A stretch of 64,000 nucleotides of DNA from Magnetococcales bacterium (GCA_015232245.1 JADGAB010000001.1:1388-65387), one strand, 5' to 3'. Shown: positions 15,564-45,053, numbered from the stretch's first letter. The notes: a model not told the origin generated them from the sequence alone. Numbers and translations are program-made.

Positions 15564-15565
15564 GG

Positions 15566-18349: not shown

Positions 18350-18365
18350 TCTGGAGCAGAATCAC

Positions 18366-26952: not shown

Positions 26953-29061
26953 TCAAAATCCCGACTCGCGGATCAAAACCGCCAGCATGGAGCGCGCCAC
27001 CCGGTCCGCCAGGCTGCGGGCCGGACCGCTCATGACCAGGGTGCCGCGCTGCTGGACAAGAATTGTGGCATCCTGGTCAATCCCTTCCAGAGTGATGCGA
27101 TAGAGCGCCTGTTCGGGAAGGCGCTGGTCGTGGATATCGCGTACCGGGATTTCCCCGCCGTGACTGGCGGCCAATAGCGGATCCGCCAGATGGCGGACGT
27201 TGCTTTTGTCCAGGGTGGTCACAAGACAGTCGATGGCGGAGGCGTCCGGATTGTCGGGATGAAAACGGGCGGATTGCCCCTGGACTACCCGGGCCAGATC
27301 CACCTCGGTCAGATAGGCGTGCATGACCGGAGGGCCAATGGCCAGAACCCCTCCCAGTCTCTCCCGATTGGAGAGCCATTGTCCGGGTTGCAGATCCGGC
27401 GTCAGATCCACCACCCGACCGGAAAACGGCGCCGTGATGCGATTTCTGGCCGCTTCCTGTTCCAGGCCCACCCCTTCGGTAATGGCGGTTTCCAGCTCCT
27501 GATGCAGCACCTGGCTGCGTCCCAGCAGCAAAGGATCCACACCAACCCCGGCCCATTCCCATTCCAGCATCTGGCGTCGTTTGGCGTTCTGACGACGACG
27601 ATGGTCGAGATCCGGATTTTCCAGTTCGAACAACAGTTCTCCGGCGGCGACGGTTTGACCTTCGGCGACTTTCAGCGCTTTCAATCGCCCCGGACTGGAC
27701 GCGAAAAGGGCGGCGTGACCCTGACCGTGCAGCATGGCCGGCGCGGTGATCCGGGTATTCCAGGGAACGAACAGAATCAACAGGGCGATCATCCCCACCC
27801 CGGCCCAGATGCGGGCGCGTCCTCCCCGCATGAACTCATGACGTCGCATCCACCATACTCCCAGTTCCTGGCCGATGGGCATCAGAATGAACCAGACGAT
27901 CTCGACCCCAAAGAGAAAGATCCCTACCGCCTTGATGAAAAAATGATACACAAAAACCGCGATTCCCAGAAACAGAACCAGCCGGTAGAGCCAGGTGGCG
28001 AAGGCAAACAGGATCAAACCGATCCGACGCCCCCATGGAAAGGATTCCGGAGGAGGCTCTCCCGGCCTGAAGAGTTGTTCACGCAGCCACCATCGGGCCA
28101 AAGCCCCGGCGCGCTGGTGGAGATTATGGATATCCAGATGGTCCGCCAGCAGATAATAGCCGTCGAAGCGCAAGAACGGCGAGATGTTGATCAGAATTGT
28201 GGAGAAAAAGGTCGTGGTGCTCAGCAAAAAGGCCATGCCTCGACCCATGCCATCCGGGAGCAGATTCCAGGCCAGCAGGGCCAGGATGGCCACCATCATT
28301 TCGGCGGTCACTCCGGCGGCGGCCACGGCGAAACGCTTTTTCGGGTCGGCCAGTTTCCACGCTTCGGTGGTATCGGTGAACAGCACCGGCCAGAGCACCA
28401 GAAACGCGATCCCCATGGTCGGCACCCGACAACCGTGACGCCTGGCGGTCAGGGCATGACCCAACTCGTGGATCACCTTGACCACAGACAAGGTGATGCC
28501 ATACCAGATCATCCCCTCCCAGGTCAGGGTCAACAGCAGGGAGTGGACAAACAGCTCCCATTGACGCAACAACAGAATCGCGCCGATGACAAAAGCGCCA
28601 CTCATGAAATAAAACGTCTGGCGGCTGTATAAAAAAGAGACCCAGGGCAGCGCCGCCGCCAGAAAGGCGTCCGGTCGCACCAAAGGAATGCGAAAGTAGA
28701 GATAATGGTGCAACAGCCAGGTGGTCCACTGGTGGCGGCTCTTTTCGGCCCGGAGCACCAGTCGGGCGGTATCCTGGGGGGTGATGCTCCGCGACAGTTG
28801 ATGGGTGCTGAGAAAACGGGCCACCGCCTCGATATCTTGTCGGGAGAGACGCAGGGTGGTCTCCTGCGTCAGACAGGCGAGGATCTCTTCCGGGTTGCCC
28901 AGGGACCAGCGGGCGAGGATTTCGAACGCGGCCCGATCCACCCGGTGGAATTGATGACGCGCCGGGTCGTGCAGGGTCCAGGAGGGAGCGCCGTCTGCGG
29001 CCAGAGGCCCCGGGAACAGGATCAGATCCTCCCGCAGGGGCGGCAGGGGCAACGCCTCCAT
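26953..29061 (-). CDS. M50 (site-2) metallopeptidase fused to HlyD-type membrane-fusion domain, N-terminal PqqD-like region
   Basis: Start MEALPLPPLREDL overlaps upstream TGA; HELGH (28456-28470); NISPFLRFDGYY; many TMs; lipoyl-like halves VAEGQTVAAGELLFEL and ITAPFSGRV. Confidence 0.88.
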   Translation of the reverse strand: MEALPLPPLREDLILFPGPLAADGAPSWTLHDPARHQFHRVDRAAFEILARWSLGNPEEILACLTQETTLRLSRQDIEAVARFLSTHQLSRSITPQDTARLVLRAEKSRHQWTTWLLHHYLYFRIPLVRPDAFLAAALPWVSFLYSRQTFYFMSGAFVIGAILLLRQWELFVHSLLLTLTWEGMIWYGITLSVVKVIHELGHALTARRHGCRVPTMGIAFLVLWPVLFTDTTEAWKLADPKKRFAVAAAGVTAEMMVAILALLAWNLLPDGMGRGMAFLLSTTTFFSTILINISPFLRFDGYYLLADHLDIHNLHQRAGALARWWLREQLFRPGEPPPESFPWGRRIGLILFAFATWLYRLVLFLGIAVFVYHFFIKAVGIFLFGVEIVWFILMPIGQELGVWWMRRHEFMRGGRARIWAGVGMIALLILFVPWNTRITAPAMLHGQGHAALFASSPGRLKALKVAEGQTVAAGELLFELENPDLDHRRRQNAKRRQMLEWEWAGVGVDPLLLGRSQVLHQELETAITEGVGLEQEAARNRITAPFSGRVVDLTPDLQPGQWLSNRERLGGVLAIGPPVMHAYLTEVDLARVVQGQSARFHPDNPDASAIDCLVTTLDKSNVRHLADPLLAASHGGEIPVRDIHDQRLPEQALYRITLEGIDQDATILVQQRGTLVMSGPARSLADRVARSMLAVLIRESGF

Positions 29062-30395
29062 CAGATTCCCAGCCACTGCCGCATCACGGCCAGGGGACGG
29101 CGCATCAGCCAGTAGGCCAGCGAGACCCGGGAGCCGTCGATGCGCAGGGTGCCTTTCAGACCCACCCTGGGAGAGTCCCGGCCCGGATCGACGCTGGCCC
29201 GCAGACGGTAGGCGTAGGCCCCGTCCGGGCGCTGCACAGCCTCGTAGGCCAGATGCCGCAATCGGCCTGACACCGGATGCAGAGGATCGATGTTCAAAAA
29301 CAGCGTGACCGGCGCCGCCGATGCGAGGGTGATCAGATCGCCCACCGCCAGCCAGGCTTCCACTTCGGTTTCGTCCTCCATGGCGATGGTCATCACCCGT
29401 TCGCCGGTGACCACCGGACGACCGATCCAATCATAGGGATCGTTGAAAATGGCCACCCCGGCCCGGGGCGATTTGATCTGAATCCGGGCCAGCAGATCCC
29501 GCAGATAGTCCACCTCCTGACGGCGCTCCTCGATCCGTCCGGCCAGGATGGCCATCTGGGTTTTGCTCTTGACATCCAGGATCGCCTGTTGCGCGGTTTG
29601 ACGGTATTCCGCCTCCACGGTCTCCAAAGTTTTGAGGGCGACCTCCAGCTTGCCACGCAGAGTGGTGTCATCGAGATTGAAAATCGGCTGACCCGGCGCC
29701 ACGGTTTCGTTGGGACGCACCTGAAACTGATCCACCACCCCATCCATAGGGGCGCGCACCACAGCCGGATCCATCGCCACCATCTCGGCAGGCGCCAGCA
29801 CCGACAGCTTGACCGGCACCATCAGAATCCCTGCCAGGATCAACAGCAGCAGGAGGGGTCTGGCACGCTTGCGCACCGACAGGCCTCTTTTCCAGGAGAC
29901 CGGCACCTGCTGACAGACCATCACCATGGCTCCGGTTTCGGCCAGATGGGCCAGAAAAATCCGTTCCATCTCTGTCCAGTCATCCTCTCCGGGGCGGGTC
30001 AGCAGCATCAGGCCGCATCTGTCCCTGTTGCTGCCCGGACGCAGGACCACCAGCCAGCCATGTTCCGGCAGCCACTCGGCCCAGCCCGACTGCAGGGAGT
30101 CGGGAAGACGGGCGGCGTTCCAGGAGGTTCCTTCCGGTGTGGAATCCTGGTTGAGCAGCGGAAAAATCTTCTCCAACCATTGGATGAAAGGGGCATCCCG
30201 TTGGGGTTCCGTCACTCCGGACATGGCCATCACTCGACCGGTTTCGTTCCACAGGACGGCTTGACGATAGGGCACGAGCAGATGGGTTTCGTTGACCAGG
30301 ATGTAACGGGTTTCCGCCAGGGAGACGGATTGTCGCAGACGCTGTTGCAGATGGATCAGCAGGGCCAGAGGGTTGGGGGTGGAGGGTTCGTTCAT
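29061..30395 (-). CDS. HlyD/RND-type periplasmic adaptor with N-terminal GAF-like region
   Basis: VRAPMDGVV...VRPNETV..GQPIF; coiled coil; IKSPRAGVA; one TM. Confidence 0.85.
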   Translation of the reverse strand: MNEPSTPNPLALLIHLQQRLRQSVSLAETRYILVNETHLLVPYRQAVLWNETGRVMAMSGVTEPQRDAPFIQWLEKIFPLLNQDSTPEGTSWNAARLPDSLQSGWAEWLPEHGWLVVLRPGSNRDRCGLMLLTRPGEDDWTEMERIFLAHLAETGAMVMVCQQVPVSWKRGLSVRKRARPLLLLLILAGILMVPVKLSVLAPAEMVAMDPAVVRAPMDGVVDQFQVRPNETVAPGQPIFNLDDTTLRGKLEVALKTLETVEAEYRQTAQQAILDVKSKTQMAILAGRIEERRQEVDYLRDLLARIQIKSPRAGVAIFNDPYDWIGRPVVTGERVMTIAMEDETEVEAWLAVGDLITLASAAPVTLFLNIDPLHPVSGRLRHLAYEAVQRPDGAYAYRLRASVDPGRDSPRVGLKGTLRIDGSRVSLAYWLMRRPLAVMRQWLGI

Positions 30396-31195
30396 GGTGG
30401 CGGTGCGGGAGGGGTGATCTCGGCCTTGCCGCTCATGCCGGCGATCAGTTCCGGAAACTGCCCCACCACTTCGCCGATCACCTTCACCGACTGGCTCACC
30501 GGATCCACCCGCGCCCCGACCCGCGCCACCTTGACCGGATAATGACGCCCGGTTTCATCGATGACCACCTGGAACGGGGTTCCCTGTCCCAGCCAGGCGA
30601 GCCAGCGGGAGGGGACGATCAACTCCAACTCCAGCATCTGGTCGTCGAGGATTTCCAGAATCGGCTGGCCGGTCTGGACAAACTGCTGTTCCCGGACTTT
30701 CTGCTCCACCACCCGACCGGAGAATGTGGCGGATACGGTGCACTTGTTCAGCGTGGTGGACATGACGTTGACTTCGGCGCGGCTCTCTCCCGCCTTGCTC
30801 TCCGAAAGGGAGAGATCCAGGGCGCCGACGGATTTCAGTTCCAGCAGACGGCGATTGGTGGCCAGATTCTTTTCCGCTCCGTTGTAGACCGCCCGGGCCT
30901 TTTCCAACTGGGATTTCTGGATGGCACAATCGAGCAGGATTAGGGTGTCGCCTTTCTTGAAGCGCTCCCCTTCCCGAAACGGGAGTTTTTCCACCTTGGC
31001 CGCCACCTCGGCAGAGAGCGTGGTGAACTGGCGCGGCACCAACTGGGCGCGGATGGCGTTGGGCATGGCGGCCAGTCCCGTGGGTGACGGGAGAGGTTCC
31101 GCGGCCTGGAGAGGCTGGATCGTCAGCAAGAGAGCGACGACCAGACCTCGTGCCGGTCCGATCGGAAAGCGTTGCCAGAAAGATGCGGCACTCAT
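30392..31195 (-). CDS. Efflux RND periplasmic adaptor (membrane-fusion protein)
   Basis: TLSAEVAAKVEKLPFREGERFKKGDTL; ATFSGRVV; RVDPVSQSV; AGMSG. Confidence 0.88.
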   Translation of the reverse strand: MSAASFWQRFPIGPARGLVVALLLTIQPLQAAEPLPSPTGLAAMPNAIRAQLVPRQFTTLSAEVAAKVEKLPFREGERFKKGDTLILLDCAIQKSQLEKARAVYNGAEKNLATNRRLLELKSVGALDLSLSESKAGESRAEVNVMSTTLNKCTVSATFSGRVVEQKVREQQFVQTGQPILEILDDQMLELELIVPSRWLAWLGQGTPFQVVIDETGRHYPVKVARVGARVDPVSQSVKVIGEVVGQFPELIAGMSGKAEITPPAPPP

Positions 31196-32835
31196 TTCTT
31201 GGCAGGGGGCTTGGGTGACGGGGGCGGTTCTTTCTGTTGTGTCTGCGCGTCATCCATGGTCAACCGGTCCATGCCGATGGAGATTCTTTCCGTCAGGGTG
31301 GGCAGATCCATGCGGGAGACATCTCCAAGATCCATGTCGATGCCCAGAGTGGCATGCAGTCGGCCCAGGGCGTTGTGCATCTCGGCCAGCGACAGGAAGA
31401 GTTTCAGACGGTTGAGGATCTCTTTGGACTGGGCGTCGATCAACTCCAACAGGCTGGCGGCATCCTGTTTCTGCCGGTTGACCACCTGCTGATGGATCCG
31501 TTGGGAGACATCGTAACGCATCTGCGCCCGGCTGAACTGGTTTTTGGTATATTCGAACTGCCGGTTGGCGATATGGATCTGGGCCAGAATCGCCATGCGC
31601 AGGGCCAGACGCCGGGCATGGGCCAGTTCCAGACCGGTATCGGCCAGACTCATCTGGGATGGCGCGGTGAGCAGATTGAAGAGATTGAAGGAGACTTTGG
31701 CCCCGGCGTCGCTCCAGGCTTTGTCCACCAGAAACGAGTTGCTGTCATATTGCCGTCCCAGATTGAAGGAGATTCCCGGCAGCAAACGGGCCACGGCCTT
31801 GCGGGTTTCGTCCATGGCGATGCGGGTTTGCAGGGCGCTTTCCCGCAGATCGGCGTTGAAAAAGAGTGCGGTCTCTTCCATCCGTTCCATGGGCATGGTC
31901 CAGGTGGGCACCTTCAGTTGGGCCTCCCTGGGCAGGGCCAGTTGCAGCGGGGTGCCGGGGGGAAGGTTGATCATGGCGGTCAACTCCACCTGGGCGGAAC
32001 CGAGTTCCATCTCCACGGCTTCCAACTGGGCCAGGTGTTCCAGCAGGTTTTGCTGGAATTGCAGGGCGTCCAGAGGCGCCCGCACTCCCTCTTTTTCCGC
32101 CTGACGGGCAGAGGCCAGGGCCGATTCCACCAGGGCGATGCTCTTCTTGACATCCTGTTGCAGCAGTTGCGCGGAGGCGGCGCGCCAGAACCTGCCCCGC
32201 ACATCCTGAACCAGTTGCTGGGCGATCTTGCGTTGCCGCTCCCGGGCGATGAGAATCCGGTTGGCCTCCTGATGGGCGGTGAAATAGCCCACCCCCAGAT
32301 CCAGGATGTTCCAGGAGAGGGTGAGATCCTCGGTGATCCGGTCCCGGTCCTGGGAGGTGGAAGGGACCGTGGAGGGGGTGCCCGCCGGCAGGGTCATGCT
32401 GGTGGATGCTCCATGATTGGAGCGTCCCGCGTAGCCCGCCGAGGTGACCAGTTTGGGCAGCATGTCGAAGGATGTGACCGTGAGTTGCTGATTGGCCTGC
32501 ATCTCTTCCAGGCTCTTGACCCGCTGCTCCAGGTTGAAGCGCATGGTGCGGGCAATGGCTTCGGGCAGGGTCAGGGGATGATCGAGTTTCTCCTGGGAGA
32601 ACATCTTCTGCCGGTCGGACTGGATCTGTTGATCGAGTTCCGGTTTGGTCAGGGGTTCCGGGCGGATGGCGCAGCCTCCGGCGAGCAGGGCGGCGACCAG
32701 GAGCATCGACGGCCAGACATGTCTGGAAGCGATCCGGTCAGAATTTTCGGCGGTCACGGGCATGAGCGTGATTCCATGGTTCGAGGTTGATATTCGATTC
32801 TTATCGGTGGAAACGGGCCTGGACAATAGCGTCAC
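31192..32835 (-). CDS. TolC-family outer-membrane channel (lipoprotein type)
   Basis: LLAGGC lipobox; LTLPEAIAR; MLPKL; LSWNILDLG; second OEP repeat LLPGISF; GTGA overlap with adhesin stop. Confidence 0.88.
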   Translation of the reverse strand: MTLLSRPVSTDKNRISTSNHGITLMPVTAENSDRIASRHVWPSMLLVAALLAGGCAIRPEPLTKPELDQQIQSDRQKMFSQEKLDHPLTLPEAIARTMRFNLEQRVKSLEEMQANQQLTVTSFDMLPKLVTSAGYAGRSNHGASTSMTLPAGTPSTVPSTSQDRDRITEDLTLSWNILDLGVGYFTAHQEANRILIARERQRKIAQQLVQDVRGRFWRAASAQLLQQDVKKSIALVESALASARQAEKEGVRAPLDALQFQQNLLEHLAQLEAVEMELGSAQVELTAMINLPPGTPLQLALPREAQLKVPTWTMPMERMEETALFFNADLRESALQTRIAMDETRKAVARLLPGISFNLGRQYDSNSFLVDKAWSDAGAKVSFNLFNLLTAPSQMSLADTGLELAHARRLALRMAILAQIHIANRQFEYTKNQFSRAQMRYDVSQRIHQQVVNRQKQDAASLLELIDAQSKEILNRLKLFLSLAEMHNALGRLHATLGIDMDLGDVSRMDLPTLTERISIGMDRLTMDDAQTQQKEPPPSPKPPAKK

Positions 32836-35800
32836 GTGATCGGGTTGTGGCCGGTCAGCAGTTTGACCAGGGCCAGGCTTTTGGCCAGCACTCCCTCCTG
32901 CCCGGCGGAGCGCAGTTGGGCGGTGAAGGCGGGTTTGCCCATGGCTTTGGCCACCGCCCGCTCCTGACCCGGGGCATGGTCCGGATGGAGGTGAGTTTTC
33001 TTCTGACCTGGGGCAAAGCTCTTTTCTTGCGTGCGAGGTTTGCCTCCCAGAAAGATCTTGAACTTCGTGGTGACTTCTTTGCCGTTTTTGTCTTGGGCCT
33101 TTACCGAGATCTCAATGGTTTGGTTCTTGCTGCCGAGTGGGGGGGTGCCTTCGAACCTGCCTGTGGCGACGTTGAACTTGAGCCAAGGGGGCAGAGGCTT
33201 TCCTTCGCCAGCCATGATGCTCAAGGTGGGTTTTTCGCCCTGGAAGGTGTCCTGGGGAATGGTGAAACTGAATTGTTTTCCACTGATTGCCGTTTGATCT
33301 GGAATGGTTTTATTGAGCTTCAGATAAGTGGTTTCACTGCTCTTGCCGGTATCCTTGGCGACATCGGCGGTTTTGGTTTCGGTGGTCGCGGTTTTGGTGT
33401 CCGAGGTGCTCTTTGTTTCGCTGCTCTTGCCGGTTATGGTGGCGATGGCGGCCAGTTGATTAGAATTAAGTGTTTTCTGGACGAGTGAAGTCAAAGTTTG
33501 ATCTGGTGTTGTTGAGGCTTTGTTCAATACGTCTGATGCGGCTGTGAACTGTGTGGTTGTTGACATGGCCGTTTCTTGAGATACGCCGTTGACTAACAAC
33601 GTCTTCACCAAACCTTGGTCGAAAAAATCACTTGGTATAAAGCCAACTCCTACAACATTCTCTGTAGACGCCTTTGCTCCTCCGTCAGAGTTCTTCAATG
33701 GGGATGTTGTCAATGTCCCGCTTGTGATCGTTGTCGAACCTGAATAAGTGTTGGTTGTTGTCAGGGGGCTGATTGAAAAAGAGCTGATGGAGGTAATAGG
33801 CGGGTTTGTGAACACGGAATTAAATGCGTCACCAGTGATTCCGTCCTTTCCTGAAAAGGTTAAACCCACTGGGGGGGTATTGTTGAAGAACTCATCGCTT
33901 GATGTAAGCGAATTTTTCGGGGTTTTGGATGCGAGGAAGGCTGCCTCGAAATTATCACTTGATTGGTTTGTAATTCTTAATTGTGGGGCAACTGGATCGT
34001 ATGTATAAACAGTAAAGAACGATGAATCTTTGGCTATGTTACCTGCTTTTGCTGTAATGTACAGGGTGCCCTTTGATGACAATGATGTGCTTAGATCGGT
34101 AAAAGTGGCTACACCATGGACGGCTTTGATTAGAGTTGTTCCGAACAAAACAGAATTCGTTGACGATGTGTCTCTAATTGTTACTTCTATGTATCCGTTA
34201 TAGTCATAAACGTCTCCATTTGGTTGATAGCATGTAACGATAGGCTGCTTTTTAAAGAGTTTAGAAACATTTTCATACTCTGGGGACTGTGTGAATGCTA
34301 TATAACTGAATGTGGGGCTTTTTTTGACCGCGACTGAAGTGTTCTCCGTGCTGGTCAACCCGTCTGACGAGGCCGTCAAGGTGAGGGTTTCGGGCGAGGA
34401 TGTCCAAAGGTCGGTGAACGTGGCGACACCATTGATGAAGATTGCCGTGGTTGGTCCGTTCAGGATGTTCTTGTCATCTTTCAGGGTTGCGGTTCCTTGT
34501 TTTGAGGTATCGACCAGGTTGTTGTTATCTGTTGCCGCGACTTGCACCGTGAAGCGGTTGCCTGTGCTCACTGTGGGAAGAGGCGGCAGCAGCACCAGTT
34601 TGCTGGCAGGGTTGGCGGTATCTTTCTGCATCGTCAGCGTCGCGGATGTGGTGATCGAAGTTTGGAACTGATCGTAGGCAAAGGCCTTGATCGTGATGGG
34701 GCCTGCAGGCAAAACGCCTTGCCCGGTCCATGTCTTCACAGGGGTGGACAAGGTAAGGTAGAAGTACTGATTATCTGTAGTATATGCAAACTGGTACGTA
34801 TAGTTGTCATCCTTCAACTCCACCCCATCCTGATCCATCACCTTGACCTTCAGAGTCACCACCTGGTTGAGCGTCGCAAACAGCGGGGTGTCCTCGGTGA
34901 AGACCAGTTTGTTCTTGGCCGTGGAGAGGGTGAGAATGGTGTTGGAGGCGTTGCTGGTCACATTTTCGTCCGTTCCCTGACCGTCCTCATAGCTCGCTTT
35001 GACCGTGACCTCATGGCCCACATCGTCGGGGGAGAGGGTATAGGAGGCGCGGGTTTCAAGGAATATCTCTTTGCCATCTCTTTGCCATTGATATTTAATA
35101 CTACTCAACATACCATCCACATCTGTCACTTTATCAACGGTCAGTGTATCCCCTTGCCGGGCGTTGATCATGCCCCGCGCATCGCTTGATGTGTTGACGA
35201 TGGTGACTACACCGGGATCGTTGACATTGGCAATATTCTCGGTGACCGGCACATAATTGATAGAGTACGGTGTCTGTCCGCCTCTTTTGTTGTTCTTTTC
35301 CTTAACACTGCCGAGATCGACTGTGACCCTGGATTCCGCTCCGTTCACCCCAGTGGTCGAAAACCCGCCTGCGTATGTATCATCGATGGCAAACAGAAAA
35401 ACCGGACTTTTGTTCTCATTGTAATTGAGCACCGGAAGAAAACGTATCTTGCTGGTTGCGGCAACAATCAGGCAGCCATCGCCCGGGTTGCCAATATTGG
35501 ACCAATTGTTACCGTCGCTGGAGTATTGCCATCTGCCAATGGAGTTGTCAGTCCTGATCTCAAGACTGTACGCGTCATTATAAATAGCCACCCCACGCAA
35601 ACTGGCGCCTTGATCGGCATCCAGAACATATCGTCCAACCAAGTCACTGATGGTCGCGCCAGATGGATTTGGGGTGTCCTCCATGGTCACCGGAAGTGAG
35701 ACACCTCCATAAGTGTTATTCCATTCCTCGGTCAGATCGGCTTGATTCCAGCTTGGGGCGGTGTTGGGATTGGTAACCGTGAAACTCTTGGCGGTTGCAT

Positions 35801-38800
35801 TGGCGGCCACGATGTTGCCAGCCAGATCCTTCACCTGATTCGCCGCAATCCCGATGGTGTAGGTGCCATAATCATCGCCATCCCAACTGCCTCCCGGCGC
35901 GGTGGCGGTGTAGGTCACCGTGTTGCCGGAGACCGTATAGCCGCTGATGGTCAGGGTATTGGATTTGGGGTCGGTGACCGTCACATTGCTTGTGTCAAAA
36001 GTGGTGGTGTCGATTCCTGCGCCGGTGTCCGCATAGGTCACGGCAAAGGTGAAAGAGGAACCGGTCGGCCCGGCCAGTTTGTCCCGCGTCACAGTGGCGG
36101 TGGGGGCGACGCCATCCACTTTGGCTTTGGAGTTGTGGGTCAGATTATAGGTGAGGATGGCATTGTCGATGACGCCGCTCGCATCCCGAATGGTGGCGTT
36201 GGTCAGCGTGATGCCGTTGGCGGTCACGTCGATGCCGTTGCCATCAAGATCGGAGTCTTGCACCGTGTAGTTGAACAAAAGCTTGGCAGAATCGCTGCCG
36301 CTGACATAGGTGGAGATGCGGTCATCCGTGCCGATCTTGAGCTTGAGCGTCGGTATGCCGGTGACGGTCACGGCCTGATCGAAGTTGACGGTGATGTTGA
36401 TCGTATCCCCGGCCTTGCAGGTGGTGTTGCCGTTGCGGGTGCCATCGTCGATGGAAACGCCGGTGATGTTGGCGACCGAATTGATGGCAATGGTCCGGGT
36501 GTCGCTGCTGGATGCTCCGTTTTTGTCCGTGAGCGTGAACGTTACTGTGCGATCTGCCGTGTTCGGCGTTTTCGAGGCGTTCTCATAACCAATCGCCCGC
36601 ACAGCTTCTTGCACGATGGCATTGGTGGCGTTTTCGTTGAATTGGACCATCAAGACTTGATTGTTGTTCTTCTCAAACCAGGATGTGCCTCCATTGAATT
36701 TTATGATCTTGCCAACAGTTATGCTGTTGTATTGGATTTCATTATCGGAGTCTTGTTTTGTTAGCCATGTAAAATTATTGATAGGATTTAATCGCAAAAA
36801 ATCAGTTATATCATTGTTCGAGGTGATTTGCACCTTCAAGGTGCCGCCGTTCCAGTCGTTGTCGCCATCCACATCGTTGATCATCGCCGCCGCATCGATG
36901 GGGAGGAAGTCGTTTGATTGCTCTGTATAGGTCAGGGTGGCGTCGTTGATGGAGAGCGTCGGAGCGTCGTTGACCGCCGTCACCGAGGTGGTGAGCTCTT
37001 TGGCCTCAAGGGAGATGGCCGAGGAGCCGCCCTTGTTTTTGGTGGGGATCATCGCCCGGGATTCTTCGGCGTTGGTGCTGGAAAAGCCGTAGTTATAGGA
37101 GCTGTCCAGGGCAAGCAGGGTCAGGGGGGTCGGGATGCCGTTGAAGTTGGCAGTCGGCAGAAAACGTATCCTGCTGTCGGCAGCAATGGCCAGGGATCCG
37201 AACGCATCATCCACGCTGCCCACATCGGCCCAGTGGCTGCCGTTGTCGCTGGAATATTGCCATTTCCCTTCGGTGGCGCTGTTGGCGGTATTGCCGACGA
37301 TGGCGACACCTTTCAGGGTGTCTCCTTCGTCGGCATCGACAAACCGCGCCTCGAAGAGATTTTTCACCGTCTCGCCGATTGGGGCTGTGGTGTCTTCCGC
37401 GATGTCGGCCAGGTTGGCGTTTGCCTGCAAGGAGGGGGCGTGGGTGAAGTTGACCATCAGGTCGAAGCGGCTGCGCTCGACCGACACGGGGTTCCCAGCC
37501 AGATCGGTCAGGTTGGGTTGGATCTCGGCAGTATAAAAGCCCGCATCGCTATCATCCCAGCTCCCCCCCGGAGCCTCGCAGGTATAGCTGACCTGGACCT
37601 TGGTGCCGTTGTTGCCATTGACTTTGAAGTCAGTGACCTTCAAGGGATTGCCGGGATCGCTTCCCCATATGCGCACATTGTTGGTACTGAAGGTCGAGGT
37701 GTCGATTCCCGAGCCGTTGTCGTCCTGGTAATTCACCACCAGCTCGAAGCTGTTGCCGGAGGGGTTGGTAAAGATTTGTTTCTGCGGATAGGGCTCTGGC
37801 CCGACCCCATCCACCGTGGCGTTGGCGTTGTTCACCAGGGCATAGGTCAAGGTCGCGTTGTCGGCTGTGCCGGTTGCGTCCTGAATCGTGGCGTTGGTCA
37901 GCGTGATGCCGTTGGCGGTCGCGTCGATGCCGTTGGTATCGTTGTCCGTGTCCTGCGCCGTGTAGGTGAAGACCAGCGATTTGCTGCCGCTGCCACTGGC
38001 GTAGGTGGCGGTTCTGGCCACCCCGCCCACATTGAGCGCCAGGGTGGGGGTGCCGGTGATGTTCACTGCCTGATCGAAACTGGCGGTGACGCTGATGATG
38101 TCCCCGGCCTTGTAGGTGGTGTTGTCAACACGGGTGCCGTTGGCAATGGCAACGCTGGTGATGTCGGCCACGGTATTGATGATGATCCGGCGCTCTGCGC
38201 GAATATAATCACTATTTCCAAGGTCAAAAACAACCACAAAGGCATGAGTGCTGGTGCGGTTATCGTCGCGATCCATATCCAACGCAAAGGGAGTGTTCGA
38301 TGTGTTGCGAAATACCAATGAACGGACCAATTCTTGGACAATGGCATTGGTGGCATTGGCATTGAAGGTGGTATAGATTACTCTGCTATCATGTCCGTCG
38401 AACAAACCAATCGACTGATTTTTGTAAAGAAGAACGTCTTTGTCAATAGTGAAGTTTCCTGAGGACAGGAGGCCCACTTGATCTCCGGCCAAAAGTTGGT
38501 CAACCGTGTAGTTGTAATTACTGTAAGTATCGCGTATTCCTGTGATCATTTTGCGACCGTTCCAGTAGGCGTCGCCGTCCACATTGTTCACGATGGCCGT
38601 TGGTTGGATCAGTATATCTCCGCTGTTTTCGGTATAGGTCAGGGTGTTTTCGTTGATGGTCAACGTGGGTTTGTCGTTGACCGCCTTGACCGTGATGGTG
38701 AAGGTCTGGGTCGCGCTTTGATCGACGCCACCGTTGGCCGTGCCTCCGTCATCGCTGATTTTTACCGTGACCGTGGCCGCGCCGTTGGCATCGGCAGCCG

Positions 38801-41800
38801 GGGTGTAGGTAAGCTTGCCTGTGGCATCGATGGCCGGCTGGCTGGAAAAGAGGGCGATGTTGTCATTGGTGACGGTGAAACTCAACGTCTGGGCGCTTTC
38901 GTTGGTCGCCCCCTTGCCGATGTCCGTGGCCCAACCGGTGACGCTCTGGGCGCCCGCGTCTTCGTTCACGGTCTGATCCGCGCCCTTGGTGAAAACGGGA
39001 ACATCGTTGACCGAAGTGATCGAGGTGGTGACATCCCGGGCTGTGGCGGCGATGGCCGTGCTGCCCCCTGTGGTGGTGGTGTTGACCGTCACCCGGCTCT
39101 CGCCAGAGGCGGTGGTGGAGAAACCAGAAGTATAGGTGTTGTCCAGGGCACGCAGGCTCAGGGGAGACGGGGTACCGTTGTAGTCGGCGACCGGCAGAAA
39201 ACGCACCTTGCTGGCAGCCGCGATGGCCAGTGCCGTGGTGCCATCACTCACGGTTCCCACATCCGCCCAGTTGGCGCCATCGCTGGAATATTGCCATTTC
39301 CCGGTCGTGGTGCTGGCGGTGTTGCCGACGATGGCCACACCGGTAAACGACGCCCCGTTGTCGGCATCGGTGAACAGGTTGCCAAACAGATTGGCAATCG
39401 TCTCTCCGGGGTTGGAGGCCGCATCCTCCGCGATGGCCGCAAGAGCGGCATTGCCGCTCAAGGAGGGGGCGGTGTTGTAGAATACGGCAAAGCTTTTGGC
39501 GCTGCTGTTGGCCGCCACCGCGTTGCCGGCCAGATCCTTGACCTGACTTGCGGCGATGCCGATGGTGTAGGTTCCGCTATCTCCGAGATCCCAACTGCCC
39601 CCGGGAGCGGTTACGGTATAGGTGGCCGTGGCGCCGCTGACGGTGACACCGCTCACGGTCAGGGTCGAGGAGTCGGGACCGGTGACGGTCACATCATTGG
39701 TATCGATGCTGGCGGTATCGAGGCCAGACCCTCCGGTGTCGGCATAGGTGACATCAAACGTGAACGATGTGCCCGTGGGTGGGATCAGATCGGCCCGCAC
39801 CGGTGTTGCCGCCGTGGGCGCGAGGCCATCCACCTTGGCGTTTGTGTTGTTCACCAGGGCATAGGTGAGGGTGGCGTCATCCACCGTGCCGCTGGCATCC
39901 CGAACGGTGGCCGAGGAGATGGTGATGCCGTTGGCGGTGGCATCCACGCCGTTGGTGTCGGTGTCCGTGCTCTGCACCGTGTAATTGAAAACCAATGATG
40001 TGCCGCCGCTGCCGCTGGCATAGGTGGCGGTACGGGTGACGCCGCCCACATCGAGCGCCAGGGTGGGGGTGCCGGTGACGTTCACCGCCTGATCGAAACT
40101 GGCGGTGACGCCGATGGTGTCCCCTGCCTTGTAGGTGGTGTTGCCGTTGCGGGTGCCGTTGGCAATGGCAACGCCGGAGATGTCCGCCACCGAATTGACC
40201 GCGATGGTCCGGGTGTCGGTGGCGATGGTGTTGCCACTGTCGGCCAGCGTGATCGTGACCGTGCGGTTGGTGGTGCCGGGAGTCTCCGAGGTGCTGCGAT
40301 AGGCGATGGCGCGTACCGCATCCTGGACAATGCTGTCCGTGGCGTTGCCGTTGAAGGTGATGGTCAGAAGCGCCCCATTGGTCACCACCCCGTCGTTGGC
40401 TGTGCCGCTGTTCTCGGAGATGGTCCCGACCGAGGTGCCGCTGTAGCGCAAATCGCTGCCGACCAGCGTGAAATTGCCGGATGTGAGGATGCTCAACTCA
40501 TCGGCGGCCTCGTTGTTGGTGGTGATCTGGGCCTTGAGGGTGCCGCCGTTCCAGTCGGCGTTTCCGTCCACATCGCTGGCGGTGGCTGCGGCGTCGATGG
40601 CCGTGGTTGCGGCGTTTTCCGTATAGGACAGGGTGGTGTCGGCGATGGAGAGCACCGGATTGTCGTTGATCGGGGAGACGGTGATGGTGAAGGTCTGGGA
40701 AGCGCTTTGGTTGACCCCGCTGTTGGTCGTGCCGCCGTCATCGCTCAAATAAACCGTCACCGTGGCCGAGCCATTGGCGTCGGCAGCCGAGGTATAGGTG
40801 AGTTTGCCTGTGGCATCGATGGCAGGCTGGCTGGCAAAGAGGGCGTTGTTGTCATTGGTGACGGTGAAGCTCAACGTCTGGGAGCTTTCGTCGGTCGCTC
40901 CCTTGCCCAGGCCCGTGGCCCAGCCGGTGACGCTCTGGGCGCCCGCGTCTTCGTTCACGGTCTGGTCCGCGCCCTTGGTGAAGAGGGGAGCATCGTTGAC
41001 GGACGTGACCGACGTGGTGACATCCCGGGCCGTGGCGGCAATGGCCGTGCTGCCCCCTGTGGTGGTGGTATCCACCGTGACCCGTGTTTCGCCTGAACTT
41101 GTGGTGGAGAAACCGGCGGTGTAGGTATCGTCCAAGGCTCTCAGGGTCAAGGCGGTCGGGGTGCCGTTGTAGTCGGCGACCGGGAGAAAACGCACCTTGC
41201 TGCCCGCCGCAATGGCCAGGGCATTGGCGCTGTCGTTCACCGTGCCGATGGCAAACCAATGGGTGGCGTCACTGGAGTATTGCCATTGGCCTTCCGTGGC
41301 GCTGTTGGCGCTGTTGCCGGTGATGGCCGCTCCGCCAAAGGCGTTGACCGTATCGCTGTCGGCGAACTTGCTGGCAAACAGATTGGTGATCGTCTCCCCG
41401 ACTGGCGTGGCGGCATCTTCCGCGATGGCGGTCAGGGAGGCATTGCCGCTTAAGGTGGGGGCGTGGTTGAAATCCGTCAGAAAACTCTTGGCGCTGGTAT
41501 TGGCTGTCACGGCATTGCCGGCCAGATCTTGCACCTGATTGGCGGCAATCCCGATGGTATAGGTTCCCTCGTCATCGATGCTCCAACCGCCCCCCGGCGG
41601 GGTCACGGTATAGGTCACGGTGTTGCCGCTGGCCGAGACACCGCTGATGGTCAGAAGATTGGAGGAGGGATCCGTGACCGTCACATCACTGGTATCGAAG
41701 GTGGTGGTGTCGATGCCCAGGCCGGTATCCGCGTAGGTGATGGCGAAGGTGAATGAATTGCCCGTCGGATTGCTGAAATCGGCCCGCACCGGTGTTGCCG

Positions 41801-44800
41801 CCGTGGGCGCGAGGCCATCCACCTTGGCGTTTGTGTTGTTCACCAGGGCATAGGTGAGGGTGGCGTCATCCACCGTGCCGCTGGCATCCCGAACGGTGGC
41901 CGAGGAGATGGTGATGCCGTTGGCGGTGGCATCCACGCCGTTGGTGTCGGTGTCCGTGCTCTGCACCGTGTAATTGAAAACCAATGATGTGCCGCCGCTG
42001 CCGCTGGCATAGGTGGCGGTACGGGTGACGCCGCCCACATCGAGCGCCAGGGTGGGGGTGCCGGTGACGTTCACCGCCTGATCGAAACTGGCGGTGACGC
42101 CGATGGTGTCCCCTGCCTTGTAGGTGGTGTTGCCGTTGCGGGTGCCGTTGGCAATGGCAACGCCGGAGATGTCCGCCACCGAATTGACCGCGATGGTCCG
42201 GGTGTCGGTGGCGATGGTGTTGCCACTGTCGGCCAGCGTGATCGTGACCGTGCGGTTGGTGGTGCCGGGAGTCTCCGAGGTGCTGCGATAGGCGATGGCG
42301 CGTACCGCATCCTGGACAATGCTGTCCGTGGCGTTGCCGTTGAAGGTGATGGTCAGAAGCGCCCCATTGGTCACCACCCCGTCGTTGGCTGTGCCGCTGT
42401 TCTCGGAGATGGTCCCGACCGAGGTGCCGCTGTAGCGCAAATCGCTGCCGACCAGCGTGAAATTGCCGGATGTGAGGATGCTCAACTCATCGGCGGCCTC
42501 GTTGTTGGTGGTGATCTGGGCCTTGAGGGTGCCGCCGTTCCAGTCGGAATCCGCATCCACATCGTTGGCTGTGGCCGCCGCATCGATGGCTGTGGCCGTG
42601 GCGTTTTCCGTATAGGTCAGGGTGGTGTCGCTGATGGAGAGGGTCGGGGTGTCGTTGACCGCAGCAAAGTTGACCGAAAACTGGGTCGAACCGGTGGAAT
42701 AGGCCGTGGACCCCCCGTTTGCGGAGGCGTTGCCGGTCTGGACCGTGTTGAAGGTCGAGGCGGTGCCGCTGGTCTGGTCCCATCTTTGGAAGGTGAAGTC
42801 CGCGGTGCCATACCAGTCGGCGGTGGGCACGAAACGGACGTAGGACGAACTGCCCAGCAGCAGGGCGGAATTGCCGGAAACCGTGCCAAAGGCGGTCCAG
42901 TTGCTGTCATCGGTGGAGAACTGCCATGTTCCCGTGCCTGTGGTGGTGGTCACTGCCAAGCCGCTTGAGGCTCCGGCGTCCACATCCCCGGTGGTGAGGG
43001 CGGGCAGAATGGCGGTGGAAATCTGTCGGCTGGCGCTGGTCAGATCCTCGGCGGTATTCAAGGTGTACGGCCCCCCGGAGAGGGTGGGGGCGTCGTTGAC
43101 CGCATTGACCGTGATGGTGAAGGTCTGGGAGGCGCTGGTATCCGCGCCAAAACCGAGATTGGTGCCGCCGTCGTCATGGATCCGCACGGTCACTGTGGCC
43201 GACCCGTTGGCATCGGCGGCGGGAGTGTAGGTGAGGTTGCCTGTGGCGTCGATGGCCGGTTGGGCGGAAAAGAGGCCGTTGTTGTCGTTGGAAACCAGGA
43301 AATCCAAGGCTTGGCCGTTTTCATCCGCCGGTCCCTTGCTCAAGGCTGTGGCCCAGGTGTTGACGGTCTGGGCTCCGGCGTCTTCGTTGACGGTCTGGTC
43401 GCCACCCTTGGTGAAGGATGGGGCGTCGTTGAGAGCGGTGACGGTCACATTCAACGTGTCGTCATCGGTGCCGGCGTTGCCGTCATCGGTCTGCAGACGG
43501 ATGGTGGCTGTGCCGTTGAAATCCCCGGTCGGCGTGAAGGTGAGCGCCCCAAGGGCGGTGTTGACCGCGCTCAACGTGCCGGAGAAGACCAGCGACGCAT
43601 CGTTGCTGCCATCCCCGGTGGTGAAATTCAAACCGGTCGTGCCCACGGAGACCGTGCCGTTGGTCACGGTCAGGGTGACGGTCTGATTGTCGTTGTTGGC
43701 GTCCGCAATGGAAATGCCGGTGATGGCGTTGCCCGAGGTGTCCTCCCGGAACGAAGGAGTGGAGGGAAGGGTGTTGACTGGCGCGCTGGCGACCGGTGTC
43801 GTGGTGTAGCTGAACCAGGTGAAGGCGATATCATCCGTGTAGGAGGTGGCGCCCGGTGTGAAGCGTACCTGAAAGGAGGAGAGCGGATCGTTGAAGCCGC
43901 TGCCCAGATCGGTGGTGGTGAGGGTCGTGGTATCGACCGTGGTGGCGCTGTTGGCCACGACATTGGAGGTGACGGTGCCCCCGGCGGCCAGTGTCCCCAC
44001 TACAGTGACATTGGCGTAGACGCTGCCATGGAAGCCATGCTGGAACTCGGTCAAGCGCACTCCGGTCAGGGTGAAACTGCTGGTGGAGGCGACCTGCCAG
44101 TAATAGACCGTGGCGTCATCGCCAATGATCGCAGAATCGAAATAGGCCCCATCGGAATACGGGGTGAGGTCGAGGGATCCACCGCCGACAACTCCGCCGG
44201 AAACCGTGAACGTGCTGTCACTCAGCGTCGCGCCGTTATCCGTGTAACTGGCCAGGCTGCCGTAATCGACCAGCGTGTTGCGGTAGGAGGCGATCCCCTC
44301 GGAGGTGATGAATACCGGAGTATCGATGTGTCCCGATGCGACCTCCAGATGCCAATCCCCCTTCAGGGCAGCCGGACCGGTGGCATTGTCGCTGGCCGCC
44401 ACGTCCGCGCCGGTGCGTTCCGCCAGGGTCTGAATGAATGTCTGACCATCCGCTCCCTTGGCCACATCACAGCCATAGATGAGCAGATCCCCGTCACTGT
44501 TCAAGGCCTGACCGATCCGTGCCAGTTCCGTCCGGATGCTCGGATCAGACAGAGTGGCCGTGGTCACCATGTCGTTGCCCACATGCAGACTCGCCTCGGA
44601 ACCGTGGGAGACCAGATGAATGGCATCATACCCGCCATGGGTTTGCGCCCATTGGGCCATTTGGCTCAGGCCGCTCACCCCGCTTTGCAGCAACTCCACC
44701 CCGACTCCGGGTCGGACGCTCTCTGCAAGCTTTTGATAATCGCTTGCCGAGGTGTCGATGAACACCACCTCTTTTTTGCCATTGTCCAGGGAGGGATCCA

Positions 44801-45053
44801 CGTCCCTGACATGCACAGGAAGCGCCGCCGCTGGAATCGGCTGGATGACAGTTGCATCGGTGGGAGAGTCCGCGTCATGGGAATCCGTTCCTGCCAGAAG
44901 GGCCCCATCGAACATGGCTCGGGGTTCCAATGCCTCCATGCGCAGACGGGAACCCCATGATCGATGCGTGTCCGGCTGGATTGACCGGGGAGCAAGAAAC
45001 GCCTGGTACAGTCGTTTCAGCAACGCTTTGTGGGTAGGCTGTATTGGATCCAT
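32832..45053 (-). CDS. Giant (~4070 aa) surface adhesin: LEPR-xLL-type N-terminal motif, DUF4347, cadherin/Ig-like repeats, C-terminal He_PIG-like domain
   Basis: LRMEALEPRAMFDG; DUF4347 (EVVFID, AIHLVSHG, LLIYGCDVA, TGADVAAS..TG...GDW.LE); VNDAP/NEDA linkers; LPPWLKFN...FEGTP; no Sec signal. Confidence 0.92.
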   Translation of the reverse strand: MDPIQPTHKALLKRLYQAFLAPRSIQPDTHRSWGSRLRMEALEPRAMFDGALLAGTDSHDADSPTDATVIQPIPAAALPVHVRDVDPSLDNGKKEVVFIDTSASDYQKLAESVRPGVGVELLQSGVSGLSQMAQWAQTHGGYDAIHLVSHGSEASLHVGNDMVTTATLSDPSIRTELARIGQALNSDGDLLIYGCDVAKGADGQTFIQTLAERTGADVAASDNATGPAALKGDWHLEVASGHIDTPVFITSEGIASYRNTLVDYGSLASYTDNGATLSDSTFTVSGGVVGGGSLDLTPYSDGAYFDSAIIGDDATVYYWQVASTSSFTLTGVRLTEFQHGFHGSVYANVTVVGTLAAGGTVTSNVVANSATTVDTTTLTTTDLGSGFNDPLSSFQVRFTPGATSYTDDIAFTWFSYTTTPVASAPVNTLPSTPSFREDTSGNAITGISIADANNDNQTVTLTVTNGTVSVGTTGLNFTTGDGSNDASLVFSGTLSAVNTALGALTFTPTGDFNGTATIRLQTDDGNAGTDDDTLNVTVTALNDAPSFTKGGDQTVNEDAGAQTVNTWATALSKGPADENGQALDFLVSNDNNGLFSAQPAIDATGNLTYTPAADANGSATVTVRIHDDGGTNLGFGADTSASQTFTITVNAVNDAPTLSGGPYTLNTAEDLTSASRQISTAILPALTTGDVDAGASSGLAVTTTTGTGTWQFSTDDSNWTAFGTVSGNSALLLGSSSYVRFVPTADWYGTADFTFQRWDQTSGTASTFNTVQTGNASANGGSTAYSTGSTQFSVNFAAVNDTPTLSISDTTLTYTENATATAIDAAATANDVDADSDWNGGTLKAQITTNNEAADELSILTSGNFTLVGSDLRYSGTSVGTISENSGTANDGVVTNGALLTITFNGNATDSIVQDAVRAIAYRSTSETPGTTNRTVTITLADSGNTIATDTRTIAVNSVADISGVAIANGTRNGNTTYKAGDTIGVTASFDQAVNVTGTPTLALDVGGVTRTATYASGSGGTSLVFNYTVQSTDTDTNGVDATANGITISSATVRDASGTVDDATLTYALVNNTNAKVDGLAPTAATPVRADFSNPTGNSFTFAITYADTGLGIDTTTFDTSDVTVTDPSSNLLTISGVSASGNTVTYTVTPPGGGWSIDDEGTYTIGIAANQVQDLAGNAVTANTSAKSFLTDFNHAPTLSGNASLTAIAEDAATPVGETITNLFASKFADSDTVNAFGGAAITGNSANSATEGQWQYSSDATHWFAIGTVNDSANALAIAAGSKVRFLPVADYNGTPTALTLRALDDTYTAGFSTTSSGETRVTVDTTTTGGSTAIAATARDVTTSVTSVNDAPLFTKGADQTVNEDAGAQSVTGWATGLGKGATDESSQTLSFTVTNDNNALFASQPAIDATGKLTYTSAADANGSATVTVYLSDDGGTTNSGVNQSASQTFTITVSPINDNPVLSIADTTLSYTENAATTAIDAAATASDVDGNADWNGGTLKAQITTNNEAADELSILTSGNFTLVGSDLRYSGTSVGTISENSGTANDGVVTNGALLTITFNGNATDSIVQDAVRAIAYRSTSETPGTTNRTVTITLADSGNTIATDTRTIAVNSVADISGVAIANGTRNGNTTYKAGDTIGVTASFDQAVNVTGTPTLALDVGGVTRTATYASGSGGTSLVFNYTVQSTDTDTNGVDATANGITISSATVRDASGTVDDATLTYALVNNTNAKVDGLAPTAATPVRADLIPPTGTSFTFDVTYADTGGSGLDTASIDTNDVTVTGPDSSTLTVSGVTVSGATATYTVTAPGGSWDLGDSGTYTIGIAASQVKDLAGNAVAANSSAKSFAVFYNTAPSLSGNAALAAIAEDAASNPGETIANLFGNLFTDADNGASFTGVAIVGNTASTTTGKWQYSSDGANWADVGTVSDGTTALAIAAASKVRFLPVADYNGTPSPLSLRALDNTYTSGFSTTASGESRVTVNTTTTGGSTAIAATARDVTTSITSVNDVPVFTKGADQTVNEDAGAQSVTGWATDIGKGATNESAQTLSFTVTNDNIALFSSQPAIDATGKLTYTPAADANGAATVTVKISDDGGTANGGVDQSATQTFTITVKAVNDKPTLTINENTLTYTENSGDILIQPTAIVNNVDGDAYWNGRKMITGIRDTYSNYNYTVDQLLAGDQVGLLSSGNFTIDKDVLLYKNQSIGLFDGHDSRVIYTTFNANATNAIVQELVRSLVFRNTSNTPFALDMDRDDNRTSTHAFVVVFDLGNSDYIRAERRIIINTVADITSVAIANGTRVDNTTYKAGDIISVTASFDQAVNITGTPTLALNVGGVARTATYASGSGSKSLVFTYTAQDTDNDTNGIDATANGITLTNATIQDATGTADNATLTYALVNNANATVDGVGPEPYPQKQIFTNPSGNSFELVVNYQDDNGSGIDTSTFSTNNVRIWGSDPGNPLKVTDFKVNGNNGTKVQVSYTCEAPGGSWDDSDAGFYTAEIQPNLTDLAGNPVSVERSRFDLMVNFTHAPSLQANANLADIAEDTTAPIGETVKNLFEARFVDADEGDTLKGVAIVGNTANSATEGKWQYSSDNGSHWADVGSVDDAFGSLAIAADSRIRFLPTANFNGIPTPLTLLALDSSYNYGFSSTNAEESRAMIPTKNKGGSSAISLEAKELTTSVTAVNDAPTLSINDATLTYTEQSNDFLPIDAAAMINDVDGDNDWNGGTLKVQITSNNDITDFLRLNPINNFTWLTKQDSDNEIQYNSITVGKIIKFNGGTSWFEKNNNQVLMVQFNENATNAIVQEAVRAIGYENASKTPNTADRTVTFTLTDKNGASSSDTRTIAINSVANITGVSIDDGTRNGNTTCKAGDTINITVNFDQAVTVTGIPTLKLKIGTDDRISTYVSGSDSAKLLFNYTVQDSDLDGNGIDVTANGITLTNATIRDASGVIDNAILTYNLTHNSKAKVDGVAPTATVTRDKLAGPTGSSFTFAVTYADTGAGIDTTTFDTSNVTVTDPKSNTLTISGYTVSGNTVTYTATAPGGSWDGDDYGTYTIGIAANQVKDLAGNIVAANATAKSFTVTNPNTAPSWNQADLTEEWNNTYGGVSLPVTMEDTPNPSGATISDLVGRYVLDADQGASLRGVAIYNDAYSLEIRTDNSIGRWQYSSDGNNWSNIGNPGDGCLIVAATSKIRFLPVLNYNENKSPVFLFAIDDTYAGGFSTTGVNGAESRVTVDLGSVKEKNNKRGGQTPYSINYVPVTENIANVNDPGVVTIVNTSSDARGMINARQGDTLTVDKVTDVDGMLSSIKYQWQRDGKEIFLETRASYTLSPDDVGHEVTVKASYEDGQGTDENVTSNASNTILTLSTAKNKLVFTEDTPLFATLNQVVTLKVKVMDQDGVELKDDNYTYQFAYTTDNQYFYLTLSTPVKTWTGQGVLPAGPITIKAFAYDQFQTSITTSATLTMQKDTANPASKLVLLPPLPTVSTGNRFTVQVAATDNNNLVDTSKQGTATLKDDKNILNGPTTAIFINGVATFTDLWTSSPETLTLTASSDGLTSTENTSVAVKKSPTFSYIAFTQSPEYENVSKLFKKQPIVTCYQPNGDVYDYNGYIEVTIRDTSSTNSVLFGTTLIKAVHGVATFTDLSTSLSSKGTLYITAKAGNIAKDSSFFTVYTYDPVAPQLRITNQSSDNFEAAFLASKTPKNSLTSSDEFFNNTPPVGLTFSGKDGITGDAFNSVFTNPPITSISSFSISPLTTTNTYSGSTTITSGTLTTSPLKNSDGGAKASTENVVGVGFIPSDFFDQGLVKTLLVNGVSQETAMSTTTQFTAASDVLNKASTTPDQTLTSLVQKTLNSNQLAAIATITGKSSETKSTSDTKTATTETKTADVAKDTGKSSETTYLKLNKTIPDQTAISGKQFSFTIPQDTFQGEKPTLSIMAGEGKPLPPWLKFNVATGRFEGTPPLGSKNQTIEISVKAQDKNGKEVTTKFKIFLGGKPRTQEKSFAPGQKKTHLHPDHAPGQERAVAKAMGKPAFTAQLRSAGQEGVLAKSLALVKLLTGHNPIT
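39789..40558. repeat. Copy A of a ~770-bp apparently identical direct repeat in the adhesin gene
   Basis: Matches 41778-42547 (offset 1989); identical shadow ORFs at 39851/41840 and 40082/42071. Confidence 0.9.
41778..42547. repeat. Copy B of the ~770-bp direct repeat
   Basis: Matches 39789-40558. Confidence 0.9.

Follow-up and report, generated by a model that had tools for sequence, protein, structure and literature searches.

A five-gene operon of a Magnetococcales bacterium would, in the reading to which we give somewhat better than even credence, encode a leader-guided, ABC-independent export machine for a giant cargo protein. The operon was studied within a 64,000-nt stretch of DNA (GCA_015232245.1 JADGAB010000001.1:1388-65387), referred to below as the window, which comes from a 76%-complete assembly of 481 contigs. 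Five minus-strand ORFs span positions 26953-45053 and code for proteins of 4073, 547, 267, 444, and 702 aa (Table 1). All five genes, as well as the overlapping stop and start codons that couple them (GTGA, ATGA, ATGA, and TGATG), could be read in the sequence as described in a first-pass annotation of this DNA. Its statement that the operon contains neither an ABC ATPase nor an RND pump also held: no ABC, RND, or SecA gene is encoded from 26953 to 45053, and no C39 or ABC domain was found by Pfam in any operon protein. Its parts list included all five genes and omitted the GAF-like domain, the cysteine-protease fold of DUF4347, the C-terminal motif, and the published sister module described below. 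Among the profile matches that it had proposed as a check, those to Peptidase_M50, HlyD_3, OEP, and DUF4347 were obtained, while the PqqD and LEPR models gave none.

The operon likely starts at the cargo gene, because a terminator-like hairpin (45470..45502) closes the gene located upstream, although the hairpin is weak evidence taken alone. That upstream gene codes for a small DUF4189 protein (45568-46017, minus strand). Promoter-like sites upstream of the operon were at chance level (3, compared to a mean of 2.7 in shuffled sequences).

Table 1. Features of the export operon and its surroundings (window coordinates)
Feature	Position	Strand	Description
Giant cargo gene	32832..45053	-	4073 aa; Pfam DUF4347, E 5e-52
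LEPR tag ALEPRAMFDG, residues 41-50	44904..44933	-	sequence motif; candidate leader recognition sequence
DUF4347, residues 96-261	44271..44768	-	Pfam and fold; caspase/CHAT-like fold, His150 and Cys195
Last Ig-like (He_PIG) domain	33054..33311	-	E 6.9e-14
C-terminal motif GKPAFTAQL	32913..32939	-	family pattern G[RK]xx[LF]SEQL; candidate retention or export signal
TolC-family outer-membrane factor	31192..32835	-	547 aa; Pfam OEP; lipobox
Adaptor 1	30392..31195	-	267 aa; Pfam HlyD_3; TIGR01730 above cut-off
Adaptor 2	29061..30395	-	444 aa; Pfam HlyD_3; GAF-like N-domain
RRE-M50-adaptor fusion	26953..29061	-	702 aa, ATG at 29061; Pfam Peptidase_M50 and HlyD_3
RRE/PqqD-fold domain, residues 5-92	28786..29049	-	fold match to RRE structures
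M50 zinc site, HELGH (198-202) to NISPFLRFDG (292-301)	28159..28470	-	both motifs intact
Terminator-like hairpin ending upstream DUF4189 gene	45470..45502	-	1 found, shuffle mean 0.4

The last ORF of the operon can also be read as an 825-aa protein starting from TTG 29430; this reading was dropped, because homologues are ~700 aa long and align from ATG 29061. A structure model of the fusion protein (mean pLDDT 91.4, pTM 0.74) was compared with known structures. Residues 5-92 matched a lasso-peptide B1 RRE with its leader (6jx3_B; Z 10.8, rmsd 2.7, 82 residues aligned), TbiB1 (5v1u_A; Z 10.1), and PqqD (5sxy; Z 8.7). The model places strands within residues 14-41 and helices within residues 43-86, giving the three strands and three helices of the winged-helix fold. 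No match to PqqD or any other Pfam family was obtained for residues 1-95. Of the PqqD/RRE-like N-terminus proposed earlier, the predicted fold stood and the Pfam PqqD match did not, and the RRE assignment is by fold only. Structure comparison further showed that residues 182-376 resemble RseP (Z 9.0) and residues 431-689 resemble periplasmic adaptors (Z up to 14.3). When the PDB was searched by sequence with the fusion alignment, adaptor and biotinyl/lipoyl chains alone were returned, and Foldseek gave, among the matches listed, adaptors only. The intact M50 protease fused to an adaptor domain, another element of the first-pass annotation, was recovered in full: HExxH (HELGH, 198-202) and NxxPxxxxDG (NISPFLRFDG, 292-301) lie within a polytopic membrane domain, and both Peptidase_M50 and HlyD_3 match. 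An alignment of 85 sequences showed no variation at His198, Glu199, His202, Asn292, or Pro295, and HExxH was present in 268 of 268 fusion homologues checked. The closest named homologues, at 66% identity, are from Magnetococcales.

The best NCBIfam match of the RRE and M50 part was the daptide leader peptidase family NF041824 (E 3e-44; 151.7 bits against a cut-off of 300); the YydH/LiaK family NF058609 gave 28.3 bits against a cut-off of 225. According to the accessible part of a preprint on daptides, an RRE is fused there to a site-2 protease, MpaP removes the leader, and the leader carries the motif ELExMEAP (10.1101/2023.03.08.531785). MpaP/DapP and YydH/LiaK thus likewise have an RRE on a site-2 protease and a leader motif on the substrate, whereas the fusion scores below both cut-offs, carries an extra adaptor domain, and has no daptide enzymes nearby (none in the 64,000-nt window). 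The shared architecture could mean that the operon matures and exports a small RiPP-like peptide, the giant gene being a linked passenger. We consider this very improbable: no recurrent peptide-modifying enzyme was found near the fusion among neighbor ORFs of at least 90 codons, and the conserved leader-like motif is part of the giant protein, whose gene is, at most loci, either coupled to the operon or inserted in it.

The cargo consists of a basic N-terminal region, the LEPR tag, DUF4347, Ig/cadherin-like repeats, a terminal He_PIG domain, and a conserved tail. Its middle is built of repeat blocks of ~660 aa (~2 kb) each, with weak Pfam Ig/cadherin matches. The LEPR leader reported in the first pass is present, and its place is 44904-44933 rather than ~44911-44945. 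No NCBIfam LEPR model matched the cargo at E <= 0.01; a regular expression found the motif in 94 of 121 N-termini, following a basic stretch, with a median distance to the start of 29 residues. A predicted complex of fusion residues 1-130 and a 40-residue LEPR segment scored 0.01 and speaks neither for nor against binding.

The DUF4347 domain was modeled with a pLDDT of 95.5. It resembled Tce1 (PA0256; PDB 9QPE) with a Z of 12.7 (rmsd 3.0, 146 residues aligned) and a CHAT domain with a Z of 8.4; weaker resemblances were to clostripain-type proteases, separase, and legumain. Of 121 aligned DUF4347 sequences, 114 keep His150 and 115 keep Cys195. The model therefore suggests a putative clan CD cysteine protease with a caspase-haemoglobinase fold and a His-Cys dyad, and makes DUF4347 a second candidate for cargo processing. 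Tce1, termed a putative cysteine protease in the accessible part of PMC13323088, shares the fold and the dyad; the copy in the cargo is instead N-terminal on a giant repeat protein.

The absence of a Sec signal from the cargo, noted in the first pass, was borne out, in that no 19-residue hydrophobic segment at KD >= 1.6 was found; neither was an RTX nonapeptide. At least three RTX repeats were present in 3 of 108 LEPR cargos versus 4 of 13 LEPR-less DUF4347 proteins. As for the uncleaved C-terminal signal that is typical of type I substrates, mostly behind RTX repeats, the cargo lacks the RTX nonapeptide and has a conserved C-terminal motif. Among 63 candidate cargo ends taken from related loci, of which two are not true cargos, 41 carry the motif, and a tail profile matched 33 of 121 independent C-termini, the window cargo included, and none of 700 internal windows. 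The tail could be a rival, type I-style export signal, which counts against the ABC-less export reading.

The outer-membrane factor encoded by the second gene is the TolC-family component expected of a type I system; it matched OEP with an E of 2.5e-30, yet is far below the TIGR01844 cut-off. Since its lipobox cysteine is residue 55 when counted from GTG 32835, the ATG at residue 25 is as plausible a start as the GTG. Adaptor 1 is a short periplasmic adaptor whose N-terminus, judged by eye, resembles a signal peptide. Adaptor 2 contains a GAF-like N-domain (residues 1-175, assigned by structure, with TM 0.84 to a GAF cluster), a membrane segment (181-199), and then a periplasmic adaptor. None of the three operon adaptors approached the type I model TIGR01843: they scored 22, 26, and 17 bits, the cut-off being 208.65. 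The hairpin span of the adaptors was nearly constant: 68 residues in 35 of 35 adaptor-1 and 77 of 78 adaptor-2 sequences, and 64 residues in 84 of 85 fusions. Such spans fit co-assembly of the three adaptors in one ring.

The organization of adaptor 2 and the match of the M50 part to RseP also bear on a different function, in which the GAF input and the TolC/adaptor duct would control the M50 site-2 protease, which would cut a regulator or free the surface protein, and export of the giant would follow some unrelated route. Kamneva et al. (PMC4452313, accessible part) suggested that the GAF protein has a sensory function. This trans-envelope sensor appears improbable to us. No recurrent regulator or anti-sigma gene was found among neighbors shorter than 900 aa in 80 loci, no other export signal was detected in the cargo, and the predicted RRE fold together with the LEPR co-occurrence described next points to the giant cargo as the substrate of the fusion.

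The distribution of the fusion was determined in 401 Pseudomonadota genomes, with two candidates scored per genome. It was present in 81 (33 of 33 from the bacterium's own order and 48 of 368 others). A 40-residue LEPR profile, built from cargos adjoining the high-scoring class of fusion (see below) and applied to at most 18 candidates per genome, matched 57 of the 401 genomes, all of them among the 81 fusion-positive ones, and none of the 320 fusion-negative genomes. Outside the own order, the tag lay within 30 kb of the fusion in 26 of 29 LEPR-positive genomes. The co-occurrence of tag and fusion lends indirect support to leader binding by the RRE. DUF4347, unlike LEPR, occurred in 17 fusion-negative genomes, and 7 of the 20 LEPR cargos at the loci do without it; it was for these reasons dropped as a candidate secretion tag. 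The LEPR profile found no match in 8 of 37 genomes with the SecA-less subtype, which counts against ABC-independent, leader-guided export, though one of the eight, G238, has the tag on inspection. Because the genomes are related, these counts overstate independence. Within the own order, most genomes have at least two fusion copies, and DUF4347 ORFs reach 14,920 aa (G006/L196 and others).

Gene neighborhoods were surveyed in the best 80 of 597 confirmed genome loci, with 5 kb or more of downstream sequence available in 57; the loci frequently stopped short of the far side of the cargo. Adaptor 2 immediately preceded the fusion in 80 of 80 loci, and SecA was found in none. The gene before adaptor 2 was classified by a script as the cargo in 34 loci and adaptor 1 in 24; 9 of the remaining loci end too soon and 13 were unclassified, mostly because of cut cargo ends. 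ABC ATPase domains were present in 12 of 80 loci, in two of them directly behind the fusion on the same strand. One of the two genes codes for a stand-alone 277-aa ATPase and the other is a HlyB-like gene (L003) with its own RTX protein downstream. There is no RND or MFS pump in the operon; 40 neighboring ORFs that were scanned included a single gene for AcrB, which lies on the other strand and is accompanied by an adaptor of its own. The biggest true cluster of neighbors (<900 aa) comprised 14 of 80 loci. In the survey, no ABC, RND, or SecA gene is thus consistently linked to the operon, which supports the first-pass proposal of an ABC-less machine.

The fusion also matched 53 plasmid records, including E. 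coli and Citrobacter plasmids. The five-gene order is found on an E. coli plasmid, flanked by IS5 and IS1, and on a Kosakonia plasmid; on a Magnetospirillum plasmid the first gene is shorter. In the Kosakonia plasmid, three genes annotated as tail fiber proteins directly follow the fusion (L160:22128-24235).

A type I transporter acting in trans was sought in 40 fusion-positive genomes. Type I HlyD (TIGR01843) was present in 32, and the window genome itself has 8 type I HlyD matches and 11 ABC-exporter matches; both results count against ABC-less export. The other 8 of the 40 genomes had no TIGR01843 match. Four of these were set aside: G008, where a contig end cuts the fusion; G272, where the partner genes are absent from 20 kb around the fusion; G077, which has a stop codon within the fusion; and G121, which has no ABC exporter whatsoever and is for this reason likely incomplete. 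The four genomes kept (G031, G250, G330, and G338) are each 100% complete and have all five genes intact; neither a type I ABC nor a second SecA was detected in them. Their ABC exporters, in the 26 of 27 loci that were scanned, scored highest against MsbA-like or related families; none reached the PrtD cut-off, with part of the candidates scored in two of the genomes. C39 domains occurred there only as short stand-alone ORFs. One unclassified ABC exporter in each of three of these genomes counts against the ABC-less reading. From four complete genomes with an intact operon, in which no type I ABC was detected, we conclude that, by gene content, such a transporter is not generally required. The first-pass annotation had named an ABC transporter, linked or required in trans, as evidence that would speak against its proposal; what was found is one HlyB-like neighbor in 80 loci and four complete genomes without a type I ABC.

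A motor could still be borrowed from elsewhere. MacB-type ABC, RND, or MFS pumps, or the housekeeping SecA, are possible candidates in these genomes. The fusion would then only recognize and clip the leader, as a gate or release step; a MacB-type or other ABC transporter, or SecA/SecYEG, would move the cargo, possibly via a C-terminal signal, and exit would be through the TolC/adaptor duct. Export needs energy and the operon encodes no motor, the tail is conserved, type I systems are present in most genomes examined, and SecA is universal in those tested (see below), as would be expected if a motor acted in trans. The four complete genomes without a detectable type I ABC or HlyD argue against such a motor, as do the position of the single adjacent HlyB-like gene ahead of its own RTX protein, the presence of the five-gene cassette on plasmids of distant hosts, and the lack of a hydrophobic Sec-type segment in the cargo. 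On this evidence, we regard a borrowed motor as unlikely, though a serious alternative to ABC-independent export.

A relative of the operon contains a motor gene of its own. Fusion scores split into a high class (>600 bits), to which the window operon belongs, and a low class of about 235-313 bits. SecA_DEAD was searched in 55 of the 81 fusion-positive genomes, and housekeeping SecA was found in 55 of 55. In the 48 genomes from other orders, a single SecA was present in 34 of the 35 that have the high class only, a second SecA beside the fusion in 9 of the 11 that have the low class only, and two SecA in both genomes carrying the two classes. A second SecA in trans was therefore rejected as a general requirement for the high class, since 34 of its 35 genomes have a single one. 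L171 (G230) departs from the subtype rule: this low-class module has a LEPR cargo, and its genome showed no second SecA. The tag follows the subtype: it is mostly ALEPRxMFDG in the high class, while in five located low-class cargos an acidic residue precedes LEPR and MFDG is missing; several low-class cargos exceed 6,600 aa, with N-termini outside this comparison. The window genome also holds a SecA-type sister module, on contig C5. Besides this one SecA-type module, contigs C441, C341, C5, C451, C471, C423, and C278 contain at least two further fusions of the SecA-less subtype, three additional paralogues of TolC, and two additional DUF4347 proteins; a LEPR cargo and a TolC are encoded divergently on C451.

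The low class is the module described in silico by Kamneva, Poudel and Ward in 2015, a set of GAF-HlyD, M50-HlyD, and HlyD genes with a truncated SecA (PMC4452313, here and below in its accessible part). The authors remarked on the absence of an ABC, suggested that SecA serves as the ATPase and that M50 forms the inner-membrane pore, and called the biological role unknown; the accessible part names no cargo, leader, or RRE. The window operon has the same GAF-HlyD, M50-HlyD, and HlyD genes, which are sometimes accompanied by OEP in the published module, and likewise no ABC. It differs in lacking a SecA-like gene, in its in-operon TolC, and in its separate score class, and is, judging by these genes, the SecA-less sister of the published cluster. 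The idea that M50 takes the place of an ABC pore is thus already published for the SecA-containing sister, whose SecA-like ATPase is a further point in favor of a borrowed motor.

Two-partner secretion and a paralogue were noted elsewhere in the window. A low-GC region converging on the export operon carries a two-partner secretion pair (15539-25439, plus strand), whose members are a transporter of the ShlB type and a TPS protein of 2385 aa with a caspase-like C14 domain at its end. The next gene codes for a 309-aa protein (25851-26780, plus strand) without a Pfam or NCBIfam match. In a 324-aa chimeric-looking ORF (60093-61067, minus strand), ~65 residues that we take to resemble the N-terminus of an MBOAT/AlgI protein are fused in frame to the adaptor portion of a paralogue of M50-HlyD (34% identity to fusion residues 442-699). 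The two halves were never matched together in 13 genomes of the genus, and the ORF is for this reason probably a misassembly or a private deletion.

By its defining features, as read from the genes, the module is outside type I secretion. The operon contains no dedicated HlyB/PrtD/LssB-type ABC, and the one found adjacent in 80 loci has its own RTX cargo. Type I systems for giant adhesins (HlyBD-TolC, LapBCE/LapA, SiiCDF/SiiE) share with it a TolC-family channel, adaptors, and a giant Ig/cadherin-repeat cargo without a Sec-type segment; the module, in contrast, has no ABC, three short-hairpin adaptors below the HlyD cut-off, no RTX, and an N-terminal tag. The nearest mechanistic analogy is to peptidase-containing ABC transporters (C39-ABC, adaptor, and TolC), which function, for example, in microcin V export, and in which the inner-membrane component carries a fused protease that recognizes and cleaves an N-terminal leader. 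Unlike them, the module has an intramembrane M50 and an RRE, no nucleotide-binding domain, and a cargo of ~4,000 aa rather than a peptide.

We infer the following steps of leader binding, cleavage, and export, including the energy source, the mixed adaptor ring, the N-first direction, and retention by the tail. The RRE of the fusion would bind the N-terminal LEPR tag of the cargo, and cleavage of the leader would take place in the M50 site, at the inner membrane. The three adaptors and the TolC-type channel would assemble into an envelope-spanning conduit, through which the unfolded giant would pass to the cell surface, N-terminus first, and the conserved C-terminal tail would retain it there. 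As a driving force, our preferred guess is co-translational feeding combined with the folding of Ig/cadherin repeats outside; the sister would use its truncated SecA. DUF4347 may be a self-processing protease, but only an accessory one, because some cargos lack it. M50 proteins are known as proteases and not as channels, which counts against export without an ABC.

In its fullest form the proposal is more tentative, and we would sooner doubt than accept it as a whole. It describes an unnamed secretion type in which an RRE reads a RiPP-style LEPR leader, an intramembrane protease both cuts and gates, and the cargo is threaded N-first through a three-adaptor ring and TolC. In place of a dedicated ATPase, translation and folding outside would drive the passage, and the C-terminal tail would hold the cargo at the surface; the SecA-containing sister would be a motorised version for still larger cargos. 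The module is possibly a new secretion type.

In the literature searched, the LEPR motif is mentioned in passing. The accessible part of a 2026 preprint reports N-terminal LEPRxLL domains on two giant proteins of a symbiosis, 20,000 and 36,000 aa long, that reach the partner cell; their export was modeled through TolC, SapC, and HlyD, and the term "M50" does not occur in that text (10.64898/2026.03.19.712371). The module is likewise undescribed in the accessible parts of PMC7716237, PMC6963963, PMC13723633, PMC10868602, PMC8262886, and 10.1101/2023.11.21.568195. The SecA-less form is undescribed in the literature searched, though figures S8 and S13 of PMC4452313 may include SecA-less homologues. 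No experimental study of any module member was found in that literature, outside of which most subscription journals lie, and this counts against our preferred reading. The module is real, widespread, and experimentally untouched. If it is indeed a leader-guided, ABC-independent export machine, it would provide an export route for giant LEPR-tagged proteins and a function for the LEPR motif, RiPP leader logic would have been reused in protein secretion, and the SecA-less operon would be a minimal five-gene system open to direct testing.
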